Part shown: piece by piece, positions 19,462 through 21,595 of the stretch
Numbering within the stretch: position 1 is the stretch's first letter
Layout: the number at the start of each line of letters is the position of its first letter
Source of the DNA: Myxococcota bacterium
Lineage (GTDB): Bacteria; Myxococcota_A; UBA796; CAJQPC01
Length of the DNA: 64,000 bases
Direction of reading: 5' to 3'
Assembly (NCBI GenBank): GCA_036229005.1
Contig: JAZAMN010000071.1
Coordinates: 96,001-160,000, forward strand
The notes under the pieces: model-generated
Seen by the model: only the letters and a program-made list of their open reading frames with translations
What the model was told of the DNA's origin: nothing
The model's database searches: none
Position numbers and translations under genes: made by a program

Positions 19462-20282
19462 AGGTCCACCGGCTGAGCGTCCGGGGCCGCCAGGTCCTCC
19501 TCCGCGAGCAAGGCCAGGGCGCCCCGCTGCTGCTCCTGCACGGCGTGCCCACCTCGTCTCTGCTCTACCGCAACTGCATGGGCCCCCTCGCGGACGCCGG
19601 GGTGCGTGCGCTGGCCCCCGACCTGCCCGGCTACGGCGCCTCCGAGCACATCGACCATGATCTGAGCGTCGACGCCCACCTGGACTGGCTGGAGGCGCTA
19701 CTCGATGACCTCGCCTGCGGGCCGGTGCATGTGGCGGGTGTGGATCTGGGCGGGTTGCTGGCGGTGGGCCTGACTTTGCGCGGCCGGACGCGATCCCTCT
19801 CCCTCACCAGCACCGCCATCGGACCGGGCTGGATGCCGGCACAGCTCACCGCGATGCCCGGCCTGGAGCTCTTCTTCTACCGGCTCTACGGCGGGCGCCT
19901 CTGGCTGCGTCAAGGCGTCGCCCCGGAACGCGTCCCCGCCCTGTTGGCCCTCCACAGCCCCCGCCTGGAGTCCGACCCCCAGTTCACCGAGCGCATGCGC
20001 CGCACCGCCCTGGCCTTCTCCTGGCGCCACTGGGCCCGCTGGCCCCAAGCACTGGCCGCCAGCCCCGTCCCAAAGCAGCTCATCTGGGGCAGCGAGGACC
20101 GCTTCTTCAGACCCTGGGTCGCCCAGCGCATCGCGGCGTCTCTGGGCTGTCCGCTCCACTGGGTCCAAGGGGGCCGGCACCACCTGCCATTCGGTCGGCC
20201 CACCGCCTGGACCCAGCAGGTGCTCGCGCTCATCCGCGATCTCCCCGCCAGCGAGGTCACCAGGGCCCAGACCACCCCCTGA
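19458..20282 (+). CDS. Alpha/beta hydrolase (epoxide hydrolase/haloalkane dehalogenase-like), probable CTG start
   Basis: LLLHGVPTSS, APDLPGYGAS, GVDLGG (Asp nucleophile), WGSED, C-terminal His; frame is open upstream of GTG 19545 with family-like sequence. Confidence 0.75.
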   Translation: MKVHRLSVRGRQVLLREQGQGAPLLLLHGVPTSSLLYRNCMGPLADAGVRALAPDLPGYGASEHIDHDLSVDAHLDWLEALLDDLACGPVHVAGVDLGGLLAVGLTLRGRTRSLSLTSTAIGPGWMPAQLTAMPGLELFFYRLYGGRLWLRQGVAPERVPALLALHSPRLESDPQFTERMRRTALAFSWRHWARWPQALAASPVPKQLIWGSEDRFFRPWVAQRIAASLGCPLHWVQGGRHHLPFGRPTAWTQQVLALIRDLPASEVTRAQTTP

Positions 20283-20285
20283 AGG

Positions 20286-20320
20286 AGAAAACCTCCGCCT
20301 GGAAAATCCCAAGCGGAGGT
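20286..20320 (-). terminator. Intrinsic terminator
   Basis: Minus strand ACCUCCGCUUGG-GAUUUU-CCAGGCGGAGGU followed by UUUCU. Confidence 0.75.
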
Positions 20321-20454
20321 GCGGTCGTCTGGGAGTCTTTGGGGACCCGTCTCCAGGTCCAGCGGGCACCGAATCGCTGCCGACACCGGGGAATTCCGAT
20401 GCCGGATCCCCAGGGCCTCTCTTCCCTGGGACCCAAGTCATCCCTGACTTGCGA
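20286..20454 (-). ncRNA. Candidate sigma54-dependent small RNA (about 170 nt)
   Basis: Sigma54 box upstream, five back-to-back hairpins with G-U pairs valid only on the minus strand, GAGA tetraloop, intrinsic terminator. Confidence 0.65.
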
Positions 20455-20464
20455 AATCCATAAG

Positions 20465-20481
20465 AGCAAGGCCCGTGCCAA
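20465..20481 (-). promoter_or_regulatory. Sigma54 (-24/-12) promoter
   Basis: Minus strand TTGGCACGGGCCTTGCT matches TGGCAC-N5-TTGCW. Confidence 0.8.
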
Positions 20482-20520
20482 CTCGGTGACGCCCAGAACA
20501 GGGGCTCTGCGGGCAGCGCG

Positions 20521-20540
20521 CTGAGACAAGTTTGTCCCAG
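20521..20540. promoter_or_regulatory. Palindromic putative transcription factor / enhancer site
   Basis: CTGAGACAA-GT-TTGTCCCAG, 9-bp arms with one mismatch, upstream of the sigma54 box. Confidence 0.5.
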
Positions 20541-20605
20541 TGGGGGATTCAGATCCCGGCCTTCAAGCCCCCCCGAGATGATCCGTTGTGGCGGGTGGAG
20601 GTTGC

Positions 20606-21595
20606 ATGGAAGCCCTGGCTCAAGACCTGCGCGCCGAGATCTGCGCCCTGCTGGCGCAAGGACCGGCCGATCTGCGCGGGCTGGACCTGGTGCGCGCGGA
20701 CCTCTCGGGGCTGGACCTGTCTGGCTGCGACCTCCGGGGCCAGGACCTGTCGCAGGCCACCCTGCGCGGCGCGCGGCTGATCAAGGCCCAGCTCCAGGAC
20801 GCCGTGTTCTTTGAGGCCGACCTGCAAGAGGCGGAGCTGCTGGGGGCCGACCTGAGCGGCGCGGATCTGCACCAGTGCAGCGCGGCCCGGGCGGGCTTCG
20901 GCCAGGCGAACCTGCGTGAGGCGGACCTGTCGGGGGGCGACTTCTCGAACGCCAGCTTCTCGGGGGCGGACCTGGAGCAAGCGACGATGAGCGGGGCCGA
21001 GCTCAAGGGTGCCCGGATGGTCGAGACCCGGCTGGCCCACGCCGACTGCAGCCGGGTGGACTTCGAGGGGGCCGACCTGAGCCGCAGCGAGGTCAGGGAC
21101 GCCCGCTTCCGCGAGGCCGACATGCGCCGCGTCCGCTTCACGGGCGTGCGCGGCTACGAGGAGGCCGACTGGATCCTGGTGGACATCCGCCAGGCCGACT
21201 GGCGCGGCGCGGCGCTGATGTGGCGGCACATCCTGGACGAGAACTACCTGTGGGAGTTCAAGCACCGCTCCGACAGCCACCACGCCACCTACATGATCTG
21301 GAAGCTGACCTCGGACTGCGGACGACGGCCGCTGCTGTGGGGGCTGTGGACGGCGTTCATCGCGGTGGTGTTCGCGGGGATCTACGAGGGGCTGGCCATC
21401 GACTACGGCGCCCACGAAGCGCCCCTGTCCAGCCTCTACTTCTCGATCGTGACCCTCACGACCCTGGGCTTTGGGGACGTACTCCCCGCCGACGGCTGGG
21501 CCCAGGCCGCCGTCCTGGCCGAGGTCGTGCTGGGCTACGTGATGCTGGGCGGCCTGCTGAGCATCTTCGCCAACAAGATGGCCAGGAGGGCCTGA
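20606..21595 (+). CDS. Pentapeptide-repeat protein fused to 2-TM potassium-channel-like pore (Ion_trans_2)
   Basis: Long A(D/N)LxG repeat tract; LYFSIVTLTTLGFGDV pore signature; GGAGG before ATG 20606. Confidence 0.9.
   Translation: MEALAQDLRAEICALLAQGPADLRGLDLVRADLSGLDLSGCDLRGQDLSQATLRGARLIKAQLQDAVFFEADLQEAELLGADLSGADLHQCSAARAGFGQANLREADLSGGDFSNASFSGADLEQATMSGAELKGARMVETRLAHADCSRVDFEGADLSRSEVRDARFREADMRRVRFTGVRGYEEADWILVDIRQADWRGAALMWRHILDENYLWEFKHRSDSHHATYMIWKLTSDCGRRPLLWGLWTAFIAVVFAGIYEGLAIDYGAHEAPLSSLYFSIVTLTTLGFGDVLPADGWAQAAVLAEVVLGYVMLGGLLSIFANKMARRA

Follow-up and report, generated by a model that had tools for sequence, protein, structure and literature searches.

A predicted σ54-driven small RNA family with a five-way junction fold, found in two families of one bacterial order

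Introduction

To our knowledge, the small RNAs (sRNAs) known to be driven by σ54 are either pairing RNAs with a loose fold or sponges built of repeated motifs, and work with Hfq, CsrA or RapZ. CrcZ and CrcY, and likewise CsrB and the multi-sRNA set RsmX, RsmY and RsmZ, form regulator-driven sets of sponges that titrate one RNA-binding protein through many repeated single-stranded motifs, which in the CrcZ/CrcY set are A-rich and serve Hfq. The Y RNAs YrlA and YrlB, which are σ54-controlled in some bacteria, combine an end-paired stem with a multi-arm domain.

Pxr of Myxococcus xanthus is described as an intergenic and lineage-restricted RNA with a σ54 promoter and enhancer region, its own terminator, paralogues in some genomes and an important loop (PMC5684412; PMC5568312). 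GlmY (184 nt) is described as a decoy driven by σ54 and an activator, which acts by shape, titrating a protein by structural mimicry, and shares its regulon with a sister sRNA (PMC4152352).

Here we describe a predicted RNA, hereafter the five-way RNA, with a compact, covariation-supported fold that is kept in genomes where Hfq, CsrA and RapZ were not found, and which could therefore be used to fish for an as yet undescribed RNA-binding regulator. Three uncatalogued sRNAs, this one included, together with a σ70-family gene and many lipoprotein-like genes, may give access to a whole regulatory circuit of an uncultured lineage; the narrow range of the RNA (two families) and the inferred nature of its function limit the wider interest.

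The locus and its promoter

The window, that is, the whole 64-kb stretch of DNA analysed (contig C71 of the source genome G000, positions 96001-160000; positions below count within this window), contains a sole strict σ54 box, TGGCAC-N5-TTGCT, at 20480-20465 on the minus strand, where 0.06 such boxes are expected by chance and 6 of 100 shuffles contain one. The original prediction had placed a consensus σ54 box here, with a +1 near 20454 and a terminator downstream, and the position of the box and a conserved hairpin with a short U tail agree with it. The features of the locus are:

19545..20282, plus strand: alpha/beta hydrolase gene, convergent flank, outside the RNA (Pfam Abhydrolase_6)
20285..20320, minus strand: intrinsic-terminator hairpin (20320-20291) and short U tail; the hairpin is conserved with covariation
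20285..20454, minus strand: predicted RNA of about 170 nt, its ends set by promoter spacing and the terminator
20465..20480, minus strand: σ54 -24/-12 box, by sequence match; found upstream of all 28 family loci
20588..21595, plus strand: pentapeptide-repeat/ion-channel gene, divergent flank, outside the RNA (Pfam Pentapeptide, Ion_trans_2)

The 171 nt between box and terminator fold on the minus strand with a z of -3.96, none of 200 shuffles being as stable, whereas the plus strand of the same stretch folds more weakly (z -2.02; 6 of 200 shuffles); the original prediction had pointed to G-U pairs that work on the minus strand only. An AUG at 20441 opens a frame of 247 amino acids, which lies antisense to the neighbouring hydrolase gene, and in the homologues the distance from the box to a conserved GUGCC motif (see below), 92-118 nt, is spread over all three frames; we see no conserved frame and, as first proposed, no credible coding sequence behind the promoter. 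The novelty claimed at the outset also stood, in that the Rfam scan of the window gave no match at gathering thresholds and, at E up to 10, only three weak and unrelated ones (E 5-9). ARAGORN found nothing at the locus and made no tRNA-like call. Three metatranscriptome contig sets of the same study had no match over 19500-21500, which is evidence neither for nor against expression. Our literature search found no description of the five-way RNA; the main text of bioRxiv 10.64898/2026.10.21.760802 is without relevant terms, and its supplements, outside this check, could list the RNA as an unnamed cluster.

Family members and their distribution

We collected 28 distinct family loci, 22 of them in 21 genomes from two families (f1, to which G000 belongs, and f5) of one order, and six in metagenomes. 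In a BLAST search of 61 genomes, 26 were matched at E up to 0.1, and 14 of the 22 matches inspected (G000 included) carried box, core and terminator. A pattern scan of genome contigs gave 37 matches, 15 with a box and three of those new, and a metagenome scan gave 16, nine with a box and six new; the loop motifs were a requirement of the pattern scans, but of neither the BLAST nor the model searches. Each of the 28 loci is preceded by a σ54 box and followed by a terminator-like hairpin. Because the box was used as one sign of membership, its count of 28/28 is partly circular, but all 22 model matches of at least 44 bits have it although they were not selected for it. The members are related, so that counts overstate independent events.

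A covariance model of the core (R1) matched 24 of 151 genomes of the order, 21 of them strongly (E 1.3e-6 or better), namely G000, 13 of the 21 other f1 genomes and 7 of the 22 f5 genomes; the three weak matches were not accepted as family members. A broader model (R2), run over 151 genomes of the phylum, matched only five f1 carriers that were already known and, weakly, one locus that lacks the box. Both searches score 32 first-look candidates per genome, and distant members may be missed. The carriers are probably two families of uncultured, myxobacteria-related bacteria. Matches set aside for lack of a σ54 box comprise 22 of the 37 from genome contigs (17 of these scored 22 bits or less) as well as L098, L099, L134-L138, L178 and L189; also dropped were 7 of the 16 metagenome matches, all 18 viral pattern matches (24 bits or less) and L100, which is the terminator of a different sRNA.

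Judged from sequence, the RNA is an independent, stand-alone gene: it is single-copy in G000, its gene neighbours vary between carriers, and the downstream genes are convergent or separate. In G003, of the same genus as G000 and 95% complete, both flanking genes are adjacent and the RNA is absent, so that the RNA is dispensable; in G001 the contig ends inside a flanking gene and is uninformative on this point. G105 holds two tandem, diverged copies, each with its own σ54 box and terminator (L101, G105:C785:581-995). Directly past the RNA terminator of G002 lies a tandem repeat of about 43 nt in four to five copies (L140:2740-2880).

The predicted fold and its covariation

Folded one by one and without constraint, 27 of the 28 members form a five-way junction, the exception being L014, which is four-way and lacks arm P1; z values of the individual folds range from -1.1 to -7.1 (40 shuffles each). 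The 5' and 3' ends are predicted to pair into a long stem, P0, topped by the junction, whose linkers are exactly 0,3,0,0,0 in 16 of the 28. In the window, the elements are:

20432..20448, minus strand: P0 5' strand (closing stem, contains CAGGGAUG); pair probability 0.41-0.73 at the top and 0.96-1.0 in the lower part; covariation in f5
20408..20431, minus strand: P1, variable arm, missing in L014; from folds and f5 covariation
20380..20405, minus strand: P2, about 10 bp, with a hexaloop starting AAU (20395-20390); 8 of 10 pairs compensatory
20360..20379, minus strand: P3, 4-5 bp, with a 9-11 nt loop (20374-20365) ending GUGCC (20369-20365); 3 of 4 pairs compensatory, 100% paired
20344..20359, minus strand: P4, 6 bp, with a GAGA tetraloop (20353-20350); compensatory pairs
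20327..20343, minus strand: P0 3' strand; lower part paired with the 5' end at 0.96-1.0

In G000, the top of P0 and P3 have pair probabilities of about 0.4-0.7. In a MAFFT alignment of 17 cores, not fitted to the structure, 97.4% of cells pair and 13 of the 20 core pairs show compensatory changes, a level that none of 500 shuffles reached, slid structures pairing at 28-47%; covariation, one of the checks proposed at the outset, is strong. When 22 rows were aligned to the structure, 16 of the 20 pairs changed on both sides. RNAalifold recovered P0, P1, P2, P3, P4 and the terminator from seven f5 members (28 of 56 pairs compensatory), but only P2-P4 and the terminator from nine f1 members, for which P0 and P1 were missed because MAFFT misaligned the 5' ends.

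Three of the hairpins first proposed, CCGGCAUCGG/AAUUCC/CCGGUGUCGG, CAGCG..CGCUG and GACCUG-GAGA-CGGGUC, are retained, each with compensatory changes. They do not form the string of stacked hairpins that had been envisaged; instead, the arms are branches of one five-way junction. The 5' hairpin CAAGUC-AGGGAU-GACUUG (CAGGGAUG) has a probability of 0.00 in the RNA running from promoter to terminator, comes out as the structure of lowest energy only when a 207-nt fragment that extends past the terminator is folded, and is not conserved, the closest genome homologue being without it. The CCAAAGACUCCCAGACGACC stretch, taken to be unpaired, forms the 3' side of the closing stem, and CUCCC, through which anti-Shine-Dalgarno pairing had been suggested, is buried in that stem and unconserved.

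Geometry is conserved while stem sequence varies freely, and conserved sequence is limited to three loops and the adjoining pairs, with few invariant junction bases. GUGCC is found in the P3 loop of all 28 members and is unpaired in 24 of the 28 folds; this loop tolerates deletions (L095, L096), with just 5 nt invariant, and keeps a U-turn-like U-N-R motif in 28/28. GAGA occupies the P4 loop in 28/28, even where the closing pair is flipped, and A(A/G)U is near-invariant in the P2 loop. The AAU hexaloop occurs in 6 of 466 intergenic hairpins, a frequency that rules it out as a generic terminator loop. GUGCC could also pair with the strand at the P0/P1 junction (at a fixed register, 15 of the 28 members match at 5-6 of 6 positions), which we regard as a minor alternative because it would cost two covarying helices.

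The compensatory changes and the strand-specific G-U pairs, together with the box at all 28 loci, the single copy in G000 and the lack of a conserved frame, make it very unlikely that the stretch is a DNA element or a by-product of the coding strand with no functional transcript, a view to which the weak U tails of several homologues, and the fact that we infer the transcript itself, would lend themselves. The locus very probably specifies a transcribed, structured non-coding RNA.

Comparison with known RNAs

The intergenic gene layout, with a σ54 promoter, a candidate enhancer upstream and an own terminator, is like that of Pxr (RF01812), and both RNAs are confined to a lineage and have additional copies in some genomes. 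Pxr, however, has about 110 nt in three separate stem-loops, whereas the five-way RNA has about 170 nt and is closed end to end around a five-way junction, and Pxr lies downstream of the regulator pxrR/nla19, whereas no σ54 activator is among the annotated neighbours of the five-way RNA. RF01812 had no match in the window, and its best score in G000, elsewhere, was 21.7 bits against a cut-off of 80; with the different fold, this rules out that the RNA is a Pxr. A Pxr model run over the 151 phylum genomes gave 0 matches, the positive controls being also without match. By analogy, the five-way RNA would work most like GlmY, which is similar to it in length, without being a member of that family: there is no Rfam match to GlmY or GlmZ, no RapZ was found in G000, and the fold differs. 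It is set apart from the CrcZ/CrcY and CsrB/RsmXYZ sponges by having nearly all of its bases paired and each loop motif just once, and by a genome, G000, in which Hfq and CsrA were not found.

With 6S RNA it shares a long, end-paired closing stem, a similar length and dispensability, but it has a σ54 promoter and is without a central bubble, a match to RF00013 or adjacency to ygfA. Y RNAs differ in that no Ro60 was found in G000, the closing stem is not conserved in sequence and ARAGORN made no tRNA-like call. A divergent SRP RNA, tmRNA or RNase P RNA is ruled out, since standard copies are present elsewhere in G000 (SRP RNA at C18, 59.7 bits; tmRNA by ARAGORN; an RNase P-like sequence at C31 by motif), as is a cis-acting riboswitch. 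A tight multiway junction, a GNRA loop and invariant loop bases would suit a compact ligand-sensing or catalytic RNA that acts in trans, but such an RNA is unlikely here, given the own terminator, the few invariant junction bases, the lack of a conserved same-strand downstream gene or pathway, and an Rfam scan that gave nothing beyond the three weak, unrelated matches. What the locus does have is a box, a candidate enhancer site, a terminator and no open reading frame, in a genome with rpoN and activators, and we take the family to be conserved and uncatalogued, new within the known kind of σ54/activator-driven sRNAs.

Control by σ54 and sister sRNAs

An alignment of the regions upstream of the box revealed one conserved block:

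20521..20545, minus strand: candidate enhancer site, an imperfect palindrome (S)GACA-N4-TGTC(S) after CCCCA

At least 8 of its 10 positions are matched in 18 of the 28 members versus 14% of shuffled upstream regions, the motif having been derived from the same upstream sequences on which it was scored. This shared palindrome is likely to be the site of a σ54 activator. In G000 we identified, by motif, rpoN and 14 σ54 activators, along with 41 near-consensus σ54 boxes; of the three genes that the original prediction had listed for checking, rpoN was thus present, and those for CsrA and Hfq were not found. Perfect SGACA-N4-TGTCS occurs at 29 places in G000, four of them before the 41 boxes, and the copy before the five-way RNA matches at 9 of 10 positions. 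Sites of a putative activator regulon include C7:49612, C50:61796, C66:7947, C57:74763, C59:56559, C73:71782, C24:195381 and others, and the palindrome-marked set comprises many lipoprotein-like genes, one σ70-family gene (by eye) and three sRNAs, the five-way RNA among them.

The second sRNA candidate starts at G000:C74:46224 on the plus strand (L128, L147; relatives L102-L108 and L148-L176) and lies next to groES in the loci inspected. A long hairpin, whose large loop is C-rich and has CC(G/C)UGCCCUGAC, is followed by a hairpin often with an AAU-type loop; the large loop has CCUGCC in f1 and CCGUGCC outside f1. It is more widespread than the five-way RNA, being present in 33 of the 151 order genomes and in six of the seven families, with 0 matches in reversed-pattern controls. 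Likeness between the two RNAs is weak (4 bits at most), suggestive of homology but not significant. The third candidate, of about 90 nt, runs downward from G000:C11:249830 on the minus strand (L127, L129; L130-L132), before a DAGK-family gene; a conserved ACCCUCACCGC-like stretch of anti-Shine-Dalgarno type and a terminator are found in four genomes, and GUGCC stands in a loop in three of the four copies. An Rfam scan of seven related loci gave 0 matches at gathering thresholds, and neither sister sRNA has a match. The five-way RNA and its two sisters appear, from their shared upstream motif, to be under one activator.

In most f1 genomes, and in none of the other families inspected, an inverted σ54 box overlaps a TTGAC..-type promoter of rpoN (G000:C19:33997, L238; L228-L257), an arrangement that suggests σ54 autorepression in f1.

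Mode of action

We tentatively favour, with a probability of roughly 0.45, that the RNA acts by binding a protein through its shape, as a decoy or scaffold. An activator bound at the shared upstream palindrome would switch on transcription by σ54; the RNA would fold into its long closing stem and five-way junction, the GAGA loop may dock in a tertiary contact, and the resulting shape, with its AAU, GUGCC and GAGA loops, would be bound by a putative protein partner. This reading is favoured because the helices keep their lengths, the linkers are tight and three short loops are invariant, which suggests that a surface in three dimensions is being conserved; moreover, a pairing seed would be expected to be longer than the 5 invariant nt of the P3 loop. 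It is also favoured by the absence of any Hfq match in 21 f1 and 7 f5 genomes and of any ProQ match in 61 genomes. The two sister candidates, which share the palindrome and a (G/C)UGCC loop, would by analogy resemble the multi-sRNA sponge sets. Counting against protein binding, the known partner candidates CsrA, Hfq, Ro60 and RapZ all fail in G000, where none of them had a match, and the likeness to the groES-linked sister is weak. A sponge for an mRNA-binding protein might also predict enrichment of GUGCC in the mRNA leaders of G000, where it ranks 28 of 30.

The protein sponge of the original prediction is thus upheld as regards protein binding in general, and abandoned as regards its named partner, CsrA/RsmA. 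Each RNA has several GGA motifs, and CsrA is present in 17 of 21 f1 relatives; of the 17 carriers tested, 11 have it. A CsrA sponge is nonetheless highly improbable, given that nearly every GGA starts inside a stem and that the CAGGGAUG hairpin is absent from the full RNA. Furthermore, CsrA was not found in the other 6 of the 17 carriers, G000 (94% complete), G007 (100%), G046 (96%), G051 (93%), G002 and G056, in which the RNA is intact, and it is present in 11 genomes where the five-way RNA was not found.

U-turns are a hallmark of antisense recognition loops, and the P3 loop, whose 9-11 nt sit on a short stem, has the U-N-R motif in every member and, in GUGCC, the most conserved and mostly unpaired sequence of the RNA. 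An Hfq-independent pairing sRNA, whose rigid body presents this loop (the U-turn, then CGGUGCC) for kissing with the GGCAC(C) of a single target RNA or of a few, is the main rival, though we consider it less probable than protein binding. The analogy with Pxr, which is σ54-driven, needs its first loop (PMC5684412) and has a predicted pairing target (PMC11928866), would likewise favour loop pairing over protein binding. Five target tests, with genes of G000 called in-house, were negative or at chance. Near the start codons of the 5306 predicted G000 genes, the complement of the loop was found 16 times versus a naive expectation of 20.7, and it is present in one of five giant RNAs; four shuffled loops gave -26.6 to -30.2 kcal/mol, a span that includes the best duplex of the real loop (-27.8 kcal/mol); and a GGCAC site in the rpoN leader is not conserved. 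A seed alone, moreover, would need neither fixed helix lengths nor two further invariant loops.

GUGCC(A) is also the reverse complement of (T)GGCAC, that is, the template-strand sequence of the -24 element, and the RNA could in principle be a 6S-like promoter mimic that titrates the σ54 RNA polymerase by which it is made. L096 carries CGUGCCAG, the groES-linked sister has CCGUGCC in its large loop outside f1, no 6S RNA was found in G000 by RF00013 or upstream of ygfA (L177), and the inverted box in the f1 rpoN promoter suggests feedback on σ54. If true, the decoy and the two sister sRNAs would feed back on a large σ54 regulon, in bacteria in which 6S, Hfq and ProQ were not found. We hold this to be quite unlikely: a match of 5-6 nt is cheap by chance, no -12 element lies at the right spacing (by eye), the fold is without a central bubble, the f1 sister has CCUGCC instead, and σ54 reads the -24 element as duplex DNA.

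Two observations concern other σ54 boxes of G000. On the plus strand, two stretches free of genes and about 1.6 kb long (C8:97287, L214, and C24:183752, L213) are paralogues with 73% identity; they have a σ54 box and a terminator, and counterparts in three congeners. At C66:7947, also on the plus strand, the leader after the σ54 box contains short ACACAGC repeats.
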